A stretch of 64,000 bases of DNA, taken from an uncultured Alphaproteobacteria bacterium. GTDB taxonomy: Bacteria; Pseudomonadota; Alphaproteobacteria; Rhizobiales; Aestuariivirgaceae. The notes under the pieces were generated by a model. The model was not told the DNA's origin. It saw nothing but the letters and a program-made list of their open reading frames with translations, and searched no databases. The stretch lies in assembly GCA_963846785.1 (NCBI GenBank), contig CAWJXD010000014.1, forward strand, positions 16,600 through 80,599, given 5' to 3'. Within the stretch, counting starts at the first letter, position 1. The number at the start of each line of letters is the position of its first letter. Made by a program: the position numbers and the translations under genes. Positions 11,847 through 33,411 of the stretch are shown here, piece by piece.

Positions 11847-12737
11847 TTTCGAAGAAGAACTCCTTTTCTGGAGATGCTGTGTTCGCGCCATGAAATGTAA
11901 ATAGCGCTTGCAATCAGGATGCTGACACCAAGGAATGTCCAGCTATCCGGAAAGTCGCCAAAGAAATACCAGCCCGCGATGACGGCCATAATCATCTCTG
12001 CATAACCAATGGGCGCCAGCAAAGAGGCCTCGGCATACTGCATGGCTTTGACGGACAGGAAATTGCCAAGCGTCCCGATTGCTGCAAGCAAAACGAACAT
12101 TTGCACGTGGTGCCAACTTGGCGTCTGCCAAAATGAAACCACGGCAATACTGGCGACTGCAGCACCAAACAGGCTTGTGTAGAATGTGTTCGCCATGGCT
12201 CCGCCTTTTCCTGCCAGTTTGCGCGTCAGCAGCAGCGCCAATGCCAGAGGTAACACCTGCGCCAAAAGCAAGGAACATGCCGGGGTTCAGCGCCTGTATG
12301 CCGGGGCGAATGATAATCAGTACACCAACAAACCCCACAGCAACCGCAATCCAGCGACGCAACCCCACGTGCTCACGCAAAAACATGGGTGCAAGGGCCG
12401 TAACACAGAGCGGTTGAATGAAGTAAATGGCAAGTGTTTCTGCAATACCCTGATACCTGAGGGCACCAAAGAACATGAGGGTGCTGACCACAATCAGCGT
12501 ACCCCTGCACACATTGAGAGCGCTTTCAGAGGGAACGAGAGCCGCCATGCCATTTTGCCAAACAAGGATCGGCGCCGTGAGCAGCATGCCGAAAAACAGC
12601 CGTGCCCAAACAATCTCGATCACTGGCACACCTTGTTGTCCAAGAAACTTGGCCACGACATCGAGAAATGGAAAAATAATCATCGCTGCAAGCATCAAGG
12701 CGATGCCAAGCAACGGTCGATGAACGTGTCGTGTCAT
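11843..12737 (-). CDS. DMT/EamA family transporter; one +1 frameshift near 12245
   Basis: EamA pattern split between ORF 11943-12737 (N-half, GLRRWIAVAVGFVGVLIIIRPG) and ORF 11843-12271 (C-half, AEASLLAPIGYAEMI); removing one base gives 297 aa. Confidence 0.82.
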
Positions 12738-15139
12738 GCTCTGAGGCGCAGATTCTCCGGATCCCAGATCGAGTCTGGAATGATCCGTGCACGGCGCATC
12801 TCACCAAACATCATGATGTCGAGGTCCGTGCCAGTTGCAACGAGTTCTGGTGGCACATAGGCGAAAGCGAGCGACTTCATCACCGCATGACCATAAGCAC
12901 CAGATGTCGTGACGCCGACGACCTTGCCGTTGTGATAGACGGGTTCATTTCCGACACAATCAGAATCCGTGTTATCGACTTCGAGATAGACGAGTTTCAT
13001 CCGTTCTCCGCGCTGCTTTCGCGAAAGTGATGCGGTCTTGCCGATGAAGTCAGATTTATCTTCCCGGATAAAGCGGTTCATCGAGGCTTCGTACATATCG
13101 ATTTCTGCCGTGAGTTCCGAACCCCAACCGCGATAGGATTTCTCCATGCGCAATGAGTTCATCGCATATGTTCCAAAAAGCTGCATGCCATGTCCTCGAC
13201 CTGCCTCACGCAGCGCCTCATACACTTGAGGCAAGTGATTCATCGGACAGTGGATTTCCCAGCCCAGCTCACCCACATAGTTGACGCGCAGCAGCCTTAC
13301 ATCAACGCCAACAATTCTTGCATGTCGTCCGGTAAGCCATTTTCCGAGATCATCTTTGCAAATCGTCGCGAGTACATCGCGCGACTTCGGCCCGGCGAGC
13401 ACCAGCACGCCAAAGTCATCTGTGACATCGGAGATGGAAACGTCTTCGCCATTCTTGCGCCACGCCAATTGATCAAAGTCATGAACCTGCGCCACCGCCG
13501 CCGACAATACATAAAAGTGATCCGCCGCCAACCGCGTGACCGTGATTTCACTTTCGATGAAACCGTTGGCATTCAGCAAGTGGCCAAGAATGATACCGCC
13601 GTCTTTCAGCGGAATCTTGTTGGCGCAAATACCGTCCAGGAAAGCATGGGCATCCTTGCCTTTCACATCAAATTTGGAGAATGTCGAAAGATCCATCAGC
13701 CCGACGCGCTCGCGCACGGCGAGACATTCGGACTTCACCGCTTCCCACCAATTCGACCGTTTGAAAGAATAAACTTCGCCTGTGCCGCTTTTGTCGTACC
13801 AGCGCGCCCGCTCCCATCCGAAGATTTGCGCAAACTGCGCGCCCTCGTTTTTCAGCGTGTCGTACAGCGATGACTTGCGAAGTCCGCGACCAACCTGATG
13901 CTGCTCACCCGGTTTGTAACAGTAATACATGTGGTGATAATCGGCGACGGAAACTTCCGTAGTATAGTTCTTGGTAGCCCACGATCCAAACCGGCGCGGA
14001 TCAAACTCGCGCATGTTGATTTCGGCCTGGCCATGCACCATCCACTGCGCCAGATATTTGCCCGCACCACCACCCTGGCAAATGCCAATCGATGCTCCGC
14101 AATGCATCCAGTAATTCTTGGGACCGTGTGCCGGACCAGAGAGATAAACCCCATCTGGCGTATGCGTGATCGCACCTGAGATGATCGACTTCACACCGGT
14201 CTTTCCAAACAGCGGCAATCGCTCCGCTGCTTTTTCCAGCCACGGCATGATGCGGTCGAGCTCATTGGGTTCGAGTTCGCTTTCGTAATCCCAGCGGGGC
14301 GGTTCGCCATTCCAACACACATGCGCCGTTGCAGTTTCATAAGGACCGACAAGTACGCCGTTGGTTTCCTCGCGCAGGTATGCGTGCGAGTAGGGATCAC
14401 GCACCACCGGCAATTCCATCTTGAGGTCGATCAGTTCCTGCAGCGGTTCAGTGATGATGTATTGATGCAGCATGTTTGTGATAGGCACATTATGTCCGGT
14501 CCATGACCCCACAACATCGCAATAAGAACCAGCGGCATTCACCACATGCTCGCAGTCAATATTTCCATTTTCCGTAAACACGCGCCACTCGCCTTTCGGC
14601 AACAGTTTGATGTCGGTGACGCGCGTGCGCCGATAAATCTCGGCACCCAACTGACGCGCGCCCGCCGCCATGGCGTTGGTGATATCAGCGGGAGCGACGT
14701 GCCCGTCCGTCACCGTGCGAAACGCCGCCTTGATGCCGAAAGTCTCAAGGAACGGATGATACTGCTTGATCTCAGACGGCCCAATGATCTCGCCCTCGTA
14801 ACCTGCCAGTTTCGAAATGCCGTAAACATATTTCAGCCAGTTCACTTCCTCGTCGGTGGTGGCCAGGCGTAATCCGCCGCAGCCATGCCACGATACTGCT
14901 TGACCAGTGAGCTTCTCCAGCTTCGGATAAAGTTCGGTGCCGTAAACATGCACCTTCGTCATGTTGAGCGAGCCGTTGAAATGCGGGCATTGCCCCGCGG
15001 CATGCCATGTGGACCCGGACGTCAGCTCGCCTTTTTCAATCAGAACAATATCCGTCCAGCCTTCAAGTGCGAGGTGGTACAACAACCCCACGCCCATCAC
15101 GCCACCACCAACCACCACAACCCGCGCATGCGATTTCAT
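12734..15139 (-). CDS. GcvT-family FAD-dependent oxidoreductase (dimethylglycine/sarcosine dehydrogenase-like)
   Basis: VVVGGGVMG Rossmann motif, ELTSGSTWHAAG, THTPDG, and a C-terminal GcvT domain (DLSTFSKF, NSLRMEKSYRGW). Confidence 0.92.
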   Translation of the reverse strand: MKSHARVVVVGGGVMGVGLLYHLALEGWTDIVLIEKGELTSGSTWHAAGQCPHFNGSLNMTKVHVYGTELYPKLEKLTGQAVSWHGCGGLRLATTDEEVNWLKYVYGISKLAGYEGEIIGPSEIKQYHPFLETFGIKAAFRTVTDGHVAPADITNAMAAGARQLGAEIYRRTRVTDIKLLPKGEWRVFTENGNIDCEHVVNAAGSYCDVVGSWTGHNVPITNMLHQYIITEPLQELIDLKMELPVVRDPYSHAYLREETNGVLVGPYETATAHVCWNGEPPRWDYESELEPNELDRIMPWLEKAAERLPLFGKTGVKSIISGAITHTPDGVYLSGPAHGPKNYWMHCGASIGICQGGGAGKYLAQWMVHGQAEINMREFDPRRFGSWATKNYTTEVSVADYHHMYYCYKPGEQHQVGRGLRKSSLYDTLKNEGAQFAQIFGWERARWYDKSGTGEVYSFKRSNWWEAVKSECLAVRERVGLMDLSTFSKFDVKGKDAHAFLDGICANKIPLKDGGIILGHLLNANGFIESEITVTRLAADHFYVLSAAVAQVHDFDQLAWRKNGEDVSISDVTDDFGVLVLAGPKSRDVLATICKDDLGKWLTGRHARIVGVDVRLLRVNYVGELGWEIHCPMNHLPQVYEALREAGRGHGMQLFGTYAMNSLRMEKSYRGWGSELTAEIDMYEASMNRFIREDKSDFIGKTASLSRKQRGERMKLVYLEVDNTDSDCVGNEPVYHNGKVVGVTTSGAYGHAVMKSLAFAYVPPELVATGTDLDIMMFGEMRRARIIPDSIWDPENLRLRA

Positions 15140-15262
15140 CAGAAAACTCCAATTGCCCGATGTTTCCAACTGTTCGCGGGCGCTGACAAGGTTCAATCCA
15201 TTGGCGAATGGTGAGCCAGATCAACGATATAAGATAAAAATGCCCAAGAAGGAAAATAATGC

Positions 15263-15291
15263 TTGACACCGCACGGTGGGTGTGCTAGATC
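15263..15291 (+). promoter_or_regulatory. Sigma70-type promoter
   Basis: TTGACA (15263-15268), 17-nt spacer, TAGATC (15286-15291). Confidence 0.65.
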
Positions 15292-15339
15292 TGGATACAG
15301 TCGACAGAGGTGGGCGACCACCCGAACGACTTTCAAAAC

Positions 15340-15456
15340 ATGACGAACACGCTCCGCAGCGCTCCCGGTTGGGACATGGCAGGGGTTTCCAGACGATCAA
15401 ATACCCGGTTCAATCGGCAAATCGACGGCTCCTTCGGCTTCGGCGAGATTGCTTGA
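15340..15456 (+). CDS. Candidate 38-aa small or leader ORF (MTNTLRSAPGWDMAGVSRRSNTRFNRQIDGSFGFGEIA)
   Basis: Open frame just after a GNRA-capped hairpin downstream of the 15263 promoter; no clear RBS. Confidence 0.3.
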   Translation: MTNTLRSAPGWDMAGVSRRSNTRFNRQIDGSFGFGEIA

Positions 15457-15481
15457 TTCCGGCGCATATACAGTGTATATC
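15453..15481 (+). promoter_or_regulatory. TA operon promoter with overlapping palindromic operator
   Basis: TTGATT-N17-TATATC; inverted repeat ATATAC-agt-GTATAT at 15466-15480; ATG at 15488 lies at the expected TSS. Confidence 0.65.
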
Positions 15482-15487
15482 ACTTGC

Positions 15488-15811
15488 ATGACGACCCCTC
15501 GAACCAGTAAATTCAAAAAGCCACCTGCAAAGGATCAAACCTTTGTCGCAACGCAAATGCGTTTTGACCGGGCCGGGCTCTCGAAGATCGACCGTGCCGC
15601 CGAGCTGTCCGGCACCACCCGGTCGGAATTCGTGCGCCGCAGCGCGGTGGTGGAAGCCGAAAAAGTTTTGCTCGACCAAGTCTACTTTGGGGTCGATCGC
15701 GCAACGTTCGATTTCTTCTCCGATGTTGCGTCCAAACCGCTATCCGGCGAAGCCTTTGAACGACTGATGCGCGTCAAGTCCCCCTGGGACAAAACCGCAA
15801 TCGGGAAATGA
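15488..15811 (+). CDS. DUF1778 ribbon-helix-helix antitoxin (TacA/AtaR-like)
   Basis: MRFDRAGLSKIDRAAELSGTTRSEFVRRSAVVEAEKVLLDQ; ATGA overlap with the GNAT gene. Confidence 0.9.
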   Translation: MTTPRTSKFKKPPAKDQTFVATQMRFDRAGLSKIDRAAELSGTTRSEFVRRSAVVEAEKVLLDQVYFGVDRATFDFFSDVASKPLSGEAFERLMRVKSPWDKTAIGK

Positions 15812-16281
15812 AACCGCCGGAGCCATTGGCACTCCACCATGGCCTCGACAGTTTTGAAAGCGCGCGCCCCGTACTCAACATCTGGCTGAAAACCCGCGCA
15901 CGTATCAACGAAACTTACGGCGCATCGCGGACGTTCGTCGTATGTGCAGAGAAGGGCCATGATGTGATTGGCTACTACTGCCTGTCACAGGGTGCCATCG
16001 GCCACGAACAAGTCTCATCCAAGTTCCGCCGCAACATGCCCGATCCCATTCCGGTGACTCTGCTCGGGCGGTTGGCAGTGGACCAGCGCTTTGCCGGAAA
16101 GGGCCTCGGTGCCGCCCTCCTGAAAGACGCCGTTCTGCGCGCCAAACACGCCGCCACCATTGTGGCCTCACGCGGCATGATTGTGCATGCGCTGGATGAC
16201 GAGGCGGCTACCTTCTATGCACGGTACGGGTTTGTGGGAGCGCCAAAGATGCCGCTGTTGATGGTGTTGGGGTTTGGGTGA
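15808..16281 (+). CDS. GNAT acetyltransferase toxin (TacT/AtaT-like)
   Basis: LNIWLK, IGYYCL, NMPDPIPVTLLGRLAVD and acetyl-CoA loop AGKGLGAALLKDA; directly downstream of DUF1778. Confidence 0.92.
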   Translation: MKPPEPLALHHGLDSFESARPVLNIWLKTRARINETYGASRTFVVCAEKGHDVIGYYCLSQGAIGHEQVSSKFRRNMPDPIPVTLLGRLAVDQRFAGKGLGAALLKDAVLRAKHAATIVASRGMIVHALDDEAATFYARYGFVGAPKMPLLMVLGFG

Positions 16282-20245: not shown

Positions 20246-21151
20246 ATGGAATTCAAGGACTACTACAAAACCTTAGGCGTTGATCGCAAGGCATCCGCCG
20301 AGGACATCAAGAAGGCGTATCGCGCGCTGGCGCGCAAATTCCACCCCGATATCAATAAGGAAAAATCGGCCGAGGCCCGCTTCAAGGAAATCGGTGAAGC
20401 CAATGATGTATTGAGTGATGTGGAAAAGCGCAAAGCTTACGACGAACTAGGTTCCGGCTTTCAGCAGGGCCAACAGTTCCGGCCGCCACCGGGGTGGACT
20501 GAACAACATGAATTCCGGCAACAGCGCGGCAACACCTCCCATGCTGATTTCAGCGACTTCTTTGAGGAGTTGTTTGGGCGACAGGCGCGCCAGCAGCGGG
20601 GCCAATCGTCAGCCAATTTTCGCGCCCGTGGTGAAGACACGCACGCTCGCATCGCGGTGAGCCTGCGCGACAGCTTCAATGGGGCCACGCGGCAAATCAC
20701 CCTGCGCGGAAAAAGCCTGAATCTCAAAATCCCCAAGGGCCTCGTTACGGGTCAAGTCATTCGCTTGAAAGGCCAGGGCGAGCCGGGCCACGGCGGTGAA
20801 GCGGCGGGCGATCTCTATCTTGAAATCGAATTCGCAGAAGATAAACTTTATCGTGCGGAAGGCCGCGACCTGTTCATTGACCTGCCGGTAACACCGTGGG
20901 AGGCCGCCCTTGGAGCATCAGTGCAAACGCCAACGCCCTCTGGCAGCATCATGCTGAAAATTCCGCCAAACTCGGCGCATGGTCGCGAGTTGCGCGTCAA
21001 GGGCAAGGGCATTCCGGCGGCAGAACCCGGCGATTTGCGCGTGCGGCTCAACATCGTGTTGCCACGCGGCGATACAGCGAAGGCGAAAGAGATTTACGAA
21101 ACCATGGCGCGCGATCTGGCATTTGATCCGCGCAAGAACATGGAGGGCTAG
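20246..21151 (+). CDS. cbpA: DnaJ-class curved DNA-binding protein
   Basis: J-domain [12 protein letters not shown]...FHPDINK, no zinc finger, DnaJ C-terminal domain; followed by cbpM. Confidence 0.92.
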
Positions 21152-32706: not shown

Positions 32707-33411
32707 ATGCGCCGCGCCGACCGCCTTCTTCGTGTCATACAAATTCTCCGCCGTCATCGCCGCCCGGTGATCGGGCAGGTGATAGCTGAAGAACTCGAAG
32801 TGTCGCTGCGCACAGTTTATCGCGACATCGCCGATCTCATCACCGATGGTGTACCCATCCGCGGTGAGGCAGGTGTTGGCTATGTGCTGGGCGAAGGTTA
32901 CGACCTGCCGCCTTTGATGTTCTCTGTTGATGAACTGGAAGCCATCATGTTGGGACTGCGCTGGGTGACGCGCCGGGGTGATAGTGATTTGTCACGAGCG
33001 GCGAGCGATGCGGTTGCCAAAGTAGGGACAGTGCTGCCTGCCAAACTCAAACCATTCCTGTTCGATTCGCCGCTGATTGCGCCACCATCTTTCAACCATA
33101 CAGTCGACAGCGTTGACACCGCCTCGATCCGCCATGCCATCCGCGAGCAATATCGCGTGACCATCGAATACACCGGTGAAAACCTGATCACCACCAATCG
33201 CACGATCTGGCCGCTGGCGATCTCCTATTTTGATGCGCAGCGCCTGGTTATCGCCTGGTGCGAACTGCGCCGCGATTACAGATTCTTCCGCACCGACCGC
33301 ATCAGCAAAGCCGAGATTCTCAAAGACAAATATGCCGGGCGACGCAAAGCGCTGCTCAAGGAATACCTGCAACACCGGTCCCACTATCCTGACGATGAAG
33401 TGATGGCTTAA
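32707..33411 (+). CDS. YafY-family HTH-WYL transcriptional regulator
   Basis: [21 protein letters not shown] (HTH_11), GEAGVGY, and WYL domain ([25 protein letters not shown]). Confidence 0.93.

Follow-up and report, generated by a model that had tools for sequence, protein, structure and literature searches.

A probable multi-copy promoter and 5' hairpin cassette, restricted to one uncultured Hyphomicrobiales genus, at the edge of an accessory-gene gap

The stretch of 64,000 nucleotides analysed here (the window) contains, at 15229–15331, a segment that is probably one copy of a genus-specific, multi-copy cassette, in which a strong promoter of the RpoD/sigma-70 type followed by a 5' hairpin would read into the genes of an adjoining variable gap. 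The analysis shows a repeat family that is restricted to a genus and conserved at orthologous positions, a hairpin with covariation, variable cargo, and no conserved open reading frame (ORF). An earlier sequence-only reading of the same DNA had described the promoter and its leader as a separate unit, perhaps a small RNA or a leader peptide, and had missed that this unit belongs to a genus-wide family of promoter-leader elements with 20 copies in this genome.

Read directly from the sequence, the promoter consists of TTGACA at 15263–15268, a 17-nt spacer at 15269–15285 and TAGATC at 15286–15291, exactly where the sequence-only reading had placed it. The accompanying description as near-consensus holds for the -35 hexamer and fails in part for the -10 hexamer by the E. 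coli standard; an E. coli-type promoter scan did not call the window promoter, because TAGATC lacks a T at position 6. The housekeeping consensus of the Caulobacter RpoD factor (sigma-73), as cited in PMC8144410, is TTGaCgS / GCtANAWC, and the window promoter fits it when read as TTGACAC (15263–15269)-N14-GCTAGATC, with the octamer at 15284–15291 matching GCtANAWC exactly, 14 nt past TTGACAC, at a distance that falls inside the -35/-10 gap window of 10–19 bp used in that paper. On the forward strand, the elements are an A/T-rich, UP-element-like upstream tract, GATAAAAATGCCCAAGAAGGAAAATAATG, at 15229–15261, recognised by comparison of 51 copies; a -35 element, CTTGACAC, at 15262–15269, which is identical in 20 of 20 copies in the genome and in seven of seven orthologues; a spacer box, CGCACGGTGG, at 15270–15279, near-invariant across copies and species; the -10 element at 15284–15291, in which GCTA is constant among copies and the remainder varies; and a transcription start predicted at 15297–15299 from -10 spacing only, 6–8 nt after the -10. 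The original Caulobacter RpoD consensus has a gap of 10–14 bp, which the 14-nt gap here also fits. Conservation in 20 copies and the match to the Caulobacter consensus together suggest that the promoter is real and, as had been claimed, strong-looking. The -10 region of the window copy also contains AGATCT, a BglII-type site, at 15287–15292, as do two other copies, which is possibly a coincidence.

A whole-genome search with the intergenic region revealed that window positions 15229–15320 recur across the genome (G000), a module of about 80 bp that includes the promoter and the 5' half of the stem being present in 20 copies. An nhmmer profile recovers exactly 20 copies at E <= 3e-11, with the next match at E = 0.014, and a core 15-mer gives 20 matches in G000 against 0 for its reversed control, so many that the promoter motif is evidently far beyond chance; in BLAST comparisons, at least 11 copies show 80–89% identity over 63–89 nt. 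The copies share the pattern RGAAAATAATG-CTTGACA(C/G)CG(T/C)ACGG(A/T)G-NN-TGTGCTAK-NNN-T-N5-A(T/C)AGTCGNCAG, in which CTTGACA, CG.ACGG and TGTGC.A are invariant in the G000 alignment and AGTCGNCAG, at the predicted transcript start, is conserved. The family consensus of the spacer box is CGTACGGTG, which together with the preceding CAC makes CACCGTACGGTG, a perfect 12-nt palindrome that spans the end of the -35 element and the spacer; the box is a candidate operator, and a search of the literature for the CCGTACGG box in promoters returned nothing relevant.

In a pool of 51 copies from at least nine species, information content is highest at the -35 element, the box and GCTA, and the 6–7 nt between the box and the -10 vary freely. 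The 30 nt before CTTGACA are 75–78% A+T in the same pool, against about 50% farther upstream, and 'GAAAATAAT' is conserved within this tract. Because conservation peaks on the promoter elements, we take the module for a selected promoter with an UP-like tract and not for the product of recent uniform copying; A/T richness is the sole trait common to the upstream flanks of the 20 copies.

Of 156 genomes of the genus, 69 contain the core 15-mer, CTTGACANCGYACGG, with up to 28 matches per genome and 0–1 for the reversed control; outside the genus, the 15-mer gives single matches in 8 of 294 genomes (from 128 genera of the order), which equals the control level; the module family is, by this measure, apparently restricted to the genus. 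One unpublished genome, G162, was counted in these distribution tallies only. Two genomes, G029 and G020, score zero on the core pattern yet yield many BLAST matches, and therefore carry diverged modules. Divergence of the relatives' versions likewise accounts for the finding that an exact 27-nt pattern, searched in contigs of one genome per species, matched in one other metagenome-assembled genome (MAG) only. Four module loci, those with a LysE exporter, a terminase, tRNA-Glu and one copy of an RNA that we call motif X, are orthologous between G000 and the MAG JAYVKC01, in which the flanking genes are 75–82% identical, and this orthology indicates that modules are long-lived at fixed sites.

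The first transcribed bases are at the same time genome-specific, being AGTCGNCAGAGGTGGG in G000, ATTCG(A/G)CAG in G173 and G140, and ACTCCACAAWTGGGT in G108. At the type IIG restriction-modification loci of G000 and JAYVKC01, module and leader are 76% identical and the enzymes only 27%. Taken together, the genome-specific starts and this difference between leader and enzyme point to homogenisation, or to repeated recruitment of the cassette, independently of the cargo.

The hairpin itself (15299–15331, forward strand), which we delimited by minimum-free-energy folding and covariation, is a 5'-terminal bulged structure, AGUCG / GGUGG-GCGA-CCACC / CGACU. Its parts are GTCG (15300–15303), acaga, GGTGG (15309–15313), the GCGA loop (15314–15317), CCACC (15318–15322), cgaa and CGAC (15327–15330), and the sequence-only reading had drawn this stem correctly, as it had its position right at the predicted transcript start. 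It is the minimum-free-energy fold, at -15.5 kcal/mol (z = -3.0 to -3.4, with 0–2 of 200 shuffles equally stable); the full 200-nt leader is not unusually stable (z = +1.1). The identical bulged hairpin is also the minimum-free-energy structure in five of five orthologues folded singly, namely the window copy and four others.

Covariation supports the same structure. In an alignment of orthologues from seven species, 94.8% of hairpin cells pair, against only 14–42% in slid controls in which the 3' partner was moved by 1–3 columns, and the structure is kept with compensatory changes in three pairs: an outer G-C to U-A, an inner U-A to C-G, and the apical pair. This covariation comes from three variable pairs in seven related sequences, and shuffles match the observed values in 3–4 of 500 cases, a frequency that is not a probability. 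The hairpin is weak in G086 and G093 (-7 kcal/mol, z about -1.2 to -1.7), and its inner stem is partly broken in G147. A GNRA loop is present in the window copy and G173 only, other orthologues differing (GCGA vs CCCAAAAU), and the tetraloop is incidental, since the loop is not conserved. The 5' strand of the G000 hairpin, AGTCG where others have ATTCG, is that genome's own family consensus, and the locus-specific 3' strand, CGACU where others have CGAAU, compensates for it. The evidence is modest, but the pattern in the orthologues fits selection that keeps the first bases of the transcript paired. In another class of module-driven RNA, group A, the 5' segment is likewise paired, there as a closing helix, P1, with covariation. 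We also considered an immediate 5' hairpin as a universal trait of the module and rejected it: when the first 50 nt of all 39 G000 and G108 copies were folded, z fell below -1.5 in only 15, and the partner strand often lies far away, as it does in group A.

Beyond the hairpin, the leader (15332–15452, forward strand) is unstructured and devoid of a terminator, as judged by folding and a terminator scan; the scan, over 15296–15490, found no intrinsic terminator on the forward strand. The nucleotides just past the hairpin, UUUC in the window and UUUCC or UUCCCC in orthologues, include only 2–3 U, short of a terminator. A block of the leader, 15356–15386, is held in common with G173, with 30 of 31 nt identical. 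Comparison with Rfam at gathering score over the 64-kb window gave no match, so that no known family was found for the leader; at E <= 10 the region 14900–15800 returned noise alone, and a tRNA scan of the window found none.

The fixed neighbour of the cassette is a divergent dimethylglycine/sarcosine-dehydrogenase-like gene (12734–15139, reverse strand; Pfam DAO, FAO_M and GCV_T), which is present in 137 of 151 genomes of the genus, in which homology mostly stops at its start codon. Module and hairpin face away from this gene in seven species (G000, G173, G086, G093, G011, G120 and G147), at the distance and in the orientation seen in the window in all six of the others. What follows the unit varies: in G000 the TacA1-like/GNAT toxin-antitoxin (TA) pair stands directly downstream; in G173 there is a deletion remnant of this pair; G086 has a UG17-like defence reverse transcriptase and two identical repeats of about 90 nt, G093 a 142-aa ORF, G120 about 1 kb of unannotated DNA and G147 an ORF with its own Shine-Dalgarno (SD) sequence, in each of these four before the TA pair. 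The contig of G011 ends before any downstream TA pair, which leaves six of the seven unit-bearing species comparable, and all six of these have the same TA pair, intact or as a remnant, behind the unit. Three further genomes, G114, G028 and G110, represent empty sites in which a cbpA/dnaJ-like gene directly follows the dehydrogenase-like gene, and neither the unit nor the TA pair is present in any of the three; as the cbpA/dnaJ-like gene lies at 20246 of the window, the interval from about 15.2 to 20.2 kb is a variable gap. The suggestion that the unit had been orphaned by insertion of an island does not survive this comparison, in which unit and TA pair are found together or are missing together. 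Syntenic with the TA pair, the unit apparently forms the unchanging outer boundary of a small gap for accessory genes. A search for an island attachment site, in which the hairpin region should recur as a direct repeat at the island's other end, gave only 13 matching nucleotides within a gene at 33098 (E = 0.16), which we judged to be due to chance.

Two of these gaps merit separate description. In G173 (L118, C22, reverse strand, first ~240 nt past the hairpin), module, hairpin, leader and TA operator are kept, and a deletion has removed everything between about codon 10 of the antitoxin and the middle of the GNAT toxin gene and has fused the two, which leaves a decayed TA pair. In G086, the UG17-like reverse transcriptase (PADLOC 4e-41; ORF at L119:850-2103) is preceded by the identical ~90-nt direct repeats (L082:2473-2560 and 2797-2885), which lie ~235 nt apart and are possibly the non-coding RNA or template of the reverse transcriptase.

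The TA pair of the window comprises a TacA1-like antitoxin (15488–15811; PF08681 at 1.2e-10) and a GNAT toxin (15808–16281; GNAT domains at 6e-10), both on the forward strand, behind a promoter of their own, TTGATT-N17-TATATC (15453–15481, forward strand), and an operator palindrome, ATATACA-G-TGTATAT (15466–15480). This promoter-operator, TTGATT...CATATAC-N3-GTATAT, is kept before the antitoxin in four species, G093, G086, G173 and G079, the last of which carries the TA pair with its own promoter-operator at another locus, free of the module. The sequence-only reading was thus right to hold the unit distinct from the TA pair. The start of the operon has a peculiarity of its own (window 15453–15490): 6 nt separate the end of the TA -10 from the ATG of the antitoxin (15488), which lacks an SD, so that this antitoxin gene would give a leaderless mRNA; its counterparts in G093 and G086 begin at an ATG farther downstream, preceded by an AAGGA SD, and G000 has no such ATG.

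Other copies of the module stand before a wide range of cargo. In G000 these include tRNA-Glu on C8 (138 nt downstream and co-oriented), a LysE exporter on C11 behind a terminator-like leader, a small ORF and large terminase at C16_191738, a type IIG restriction-modification enzyme at C7_84172 (where the module lies 30 nt after tRNA-Met), an FGGY kinase at C7_1158079, a DeoC-type aldolase at C16_82642 and a large DUF11 protein at C3_130860; seven copies have the group A RNA downstream and seven have motif X. The tRNA-Glu, LysE, FGGY kinase, DeoC aldolase, terminase-pair and type IIG units all run in the same direction as their modules, and none of the G000 copies has a recognisable transcription-factor gene behind it.

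Group A is a module-driven RNA of about 85 nt with a four-helix consensus fold in its seven copies (L029:3032-3125, L031:3032-3125, L034:3032-3114 and L036:3032-3114 on the plus strand; L037:2895-2970, L039:2887-2970 and L042:2876-2970 on the minus strand), with compensatory changes in 4 of 19 pairs, a closing helix UCGGC/GCCGA and conserved GUGGGUGAGAAC and UUCAAGAACUCC; it is also present in G173, G140 and G014 (L049, L050 and L052). A convergent gene lies downstream in five of the seven copies, which are for that reason free-standing RNAs and not mRNA leaders. Motif X has the form CAAC-AAYAG-[GUCUU..AAGAC hairpin]-GAC-GUUG(GG), often after a C-rich run, and is found behind 14 of 19 modules in G108 and 7 of 20 in G000 (among them L030:3066-3110, L033:3067-3111, L032:3075-3119, L035:3061-3105 and, on the minus strand, L043:2913-2957; also at the G108 loci L090-L108 and at L023, L024 and L025), with compensatory changes in 6 of 10 pairs over 21 copies from three species. 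An Rfam search of seven other module loci at E <= 1 found no RNA family for the module-driven RNAs, only a neighbouring tRNA being matched, and group A and motif X, both abundant in this uncultured genus of Hyphomicrobiales, are thus candidates for two structured RNA classes that Rfam lacks. The LysE module of G000 (C11, L046:3049-3090) carries a perfect G+C-rich hairpin and U run within ~15 nt (z = -5.0), followed by an SD and a start codon, that is, a terminator in a 5' UTR, which is kept in a second species (L026) and is a candidate attenuator by its layout. At L100 of G108, a 5' hairpin and then a canonical terminator come after the module, which would give an RNA of ~65 nt.

In the explanation that we favour, the A/T-rich UP-like tract, the perfect -35 element, the spacer box CGYACGGTG and the -10 element GCTAGATC would act together as a housekeeping promoter, whose transcript, beginning at about 15297–15299, would fold at once into a 33-nt bulged hairpin with no more than 2–3 unpaired 5' nucleotides. 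This hairpin may protect or insulate the 5' end, by analogy with the 5'-terminal stem-loop of the E. coli ompA 5' UTR, which stabilises its mRNA; the module hairpin would similarly lie within 2–3 nt of the transcript's 5' end, and unlike the ompA case it is weak in some orthologues. Given that no terminator follows the hairpin, transcription would most likely read on through the 120-nt unstructured leader into the tacA/tacT-like operon, for which the cassette would be an outer promoter, additional to the autoregulated inner promoter, and would likewise be the outer promoter of the whole gap at ~15.2–20.2 kb, where accessory and defence genes come and go. Such read-through would not be needed for TA expression, in view of the TA pair's own promoter and of the module-free copy in G079. 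Across the family, the short transcribed segment behind the promoter would always become base-paired.

Several other explanations have to be weighed against this one, and they differ in which part of the unit they take to be functional. The 38-codon ORF at 15340–15456 (forward strand), whose coordinates the sequence-only reading gave correctly (ATG at 15340; TGA at 15454–15456, inside the TTGATT at 15453–15458 that forms the TA -35), was proposed there as a possible leader peptide, and it, or a shorter upstream ORF from a conserved ATG, might regulate downstream expression by its translation. The ATG at 15340 does align with an ATG in all five sequences compared (G000, G173, G086, G093 and G011), and the opening codons MN(A/T)... 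recur in most of these orthologues, but the ORF is preceded by no SD sequence, its length runs to 6, 7, 21, 38 or ~70 codons in orthologues with differing frames and stops, the single substitution in the 31-nt block held in common with G173 is non-synonymous in its frame, and a six-frame search of 155 genomes of the genus found no homologue below E = 0.02. We accordingly judge that it is not a gene and should not be annotated, and the leader-peptide reading is barely credible. An RNA in its own right is the main alternative, albeit an unlikely one: the module would drive a short, abundant small RNA, made up of the hairpin and some tens of nucleotides, whose 3' end, short of the TA promoter, would be set by Rho or by processing, and which would act in trans like the family's other module-driven RNAs. 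Since five of seven group A copies make free-standing RNAs, the window copy could also do so, and the short terminated RNA predicted at L100 and the fact that only the module, the hairpin and ~30 nt are common to all seven orthologues lean the same way; against it, the window copy and the orthologues alike lack an intrinsic terminator, with 2–3 U after the hairpin, no conserved single-stranded seed is evident, and G147 and G093 have an ORF with an SD within 75–200 nt, as expected of an mRNA leader.

It is possible, if less probable than the favoured reading, that a repressor specific to the genus binds CACCGTACGGTG as its operator and so controls all module-driven units jointly, the window unit among them. 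Such a regulon would be compatible with the outer-promoter explanation and would make the promoter conditional instead of constitutive. The box is conserved like the -35 element across copies and species while the neighbouring 6–7 nt vary, the palindrome sits where a bound protein would block RNA polymerase, and it is kept at orthologous loci of species with ~80% coding identity; it is, however, altered in the window copy (CGCACGG) and in G173 (CGTACGC), no module precedes a recognisable transcription-factor gene, the driven genes have no obvious common theme, and the genome-specific transcribed starts of G000 and G108 imply concerted evolution or amplification and not only selection on an operator. 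We consider it very unlikely that the module merely resembles a promoter and is what remains of a mobile element, or one of its ends, whether MITE-like or mobilised by a single-strand transposase, with the window copy marking the edge of an inserted island. Near-identical dispersed copies before unrelated genes, the position of some copies at the edges of inserted DNA (30 nt after tRNA-Met; after tRNA-Leu in JAYVKC01), the absence of module and TA pair alike from the three empty dimethylglycine-dehydrogenase–cbpA sites, and the orientation of 18 of the 20 G000 copies, including all eight on the 1.2-Mb contig C7 (the others being on C3, C11, C14, C16 and C8), with their top strand on the C-rich, presumed lagging strand, would all suit an element of this kind. 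That orientation, which would be head-on to replication, is not reproduced in G108, where 9 of 19 modules lie on the C-rich strand (20-kb skew windows), and in five other genomes strand agreement of neighbouring pairs within contigs is moderate (23 concordant vs 10 discordant), so that single-strand transposition as its source was rejected. Moreover, inverted repeats in the module come to one pair, of 9 nt and 89% match, and neither the terminal inverted repeats nor the target-site duplications of a MITE- or Correia-like element were found; plasmid and phage collections contain no match to the module, positions are stable across species at five loci, and conservation is promoter-like instead of uniform.

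Among known systems, the closest likeness to the outer-promoter cassette is with the putative mobile promoters (PMPs) described by Matus-Garcia, Nijveen and van Passel in 2012 (PMC3575422), which are similar upstream sequences before non-paralogous genes of one genome and whose mechanism of mobilisation is unknown. PMPs are recognised by at least 80% identity over at least 50 nt before non-paralogues, and module copies show 80–89% over 63–89 nt before unrelated genes (76–94% over 32–89 nt before non-paralogous genes when all such matches are taken); some PMPs, too, carry RNA motifs along. Most PMP families are pairs, whereas the module family has 20 copies here and up to 28 in relatives and is genus-wide; it further differs from PMPs in its stable orthologous positions, its genome-specific transcribed starts (concerted evolution), the conserved palindrome of its spacer and the obligatory pairing of its 5' segment. 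The Brt family of Bartonella (PMC5387305), a genus-specific, nine-copy family of structured RNAs proposed to act as leader and small RNA, resembles the modules only as a genus-specific, multi-copy RNA or leader family in Hyphomicrobiales. Compared by description, Brt genes are clustered, measure 194–203 nt and each precede an HTH regulator gene of one kind, whereas modules are dispersed, share the promoter and ~20 nt, and serve several unrelated RNA classes and diverse cargo. Correia elements of Neisseria and other promoter-bearing MITEs, as outlined in PMC3575422, likewise equip neighbouring genes with promoters and RNA hairpins from short repeats scattered over the genome; Correia elements end in inverted repeats and are accompanied by target duplications, neither of which was found for the modules, whose positions are stable between species. 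Caulobacter-type RpoD promoters are alike in -35 (TTGACAC) and -10, but ordinary housekeeping promoters share neither the spacer nor the first 20 transcribed nucleotides, and the module family shares both.

Promoter reuse is known in outline, and the well-characterised large families are few and mostly linked to MITEs. The module family is a clean, genus-restricted case with ~20 copies per genome, promoter-type conservation and a palindromic spacer box, and combines genome-specific homogenisation of the first bases with locus-specific compensation that keeps them paired. It offers a natural system for asking how dispersed promoters stay alike, whether a single factor controls them, and whether a fixed hot-spot promoter aids the expression of newly acquired defence or TA genes. 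A bolder proposal, which we regard as speculative and rather improbable, is that the modules form a genus-wide, concertedly evolving 'plug-in' platform, in which one regulator at the palindromic box would switch 15–30 dispersed units (two structured RNA classes, a GTA- or phage-like packaging cluster, a tRNA, and defence and TA cargo) and the promoter-leader would serve as a homology anchor for the exchange of cargo. Such a platform would explain why different defence genes stand behind one cassette at the same site in different species, and, if real, would amount to an integron-like outcome without an integrase.

Three further loci illustrate the settings of the module. In G000, at C7 ~84.1 kb, the module and its motif X leader lie 30 nt after the tRNA-Met gene and before the type IIG enzyme (L033:2970-6000), and in JAYVKC01 a module and motif X leader adjoin a tRNA-Leu gene and are followed by a type IIG/ISP restriction-modification enzyme (L024:4575-5884). 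The module near 190 kb of C16 in G000 (L041:1168-2908, minus strand) heads the small ORF and terminase (Terminase_6N/6C) with which a packaging cluster of GTA-like or prophage type begins, and has an orthologue, L027, in a second species. At the tRNA-Glu locus of JAYVKC01 (L025:3213-5221), ~1.8 kb with a motif X RNA and genes separate the module from the tRNA, and the tRNA of the G000 locus (C8 50201–50415) lies only 138 nt after the module, a difference that amounts to turnover of cargo between the two species.
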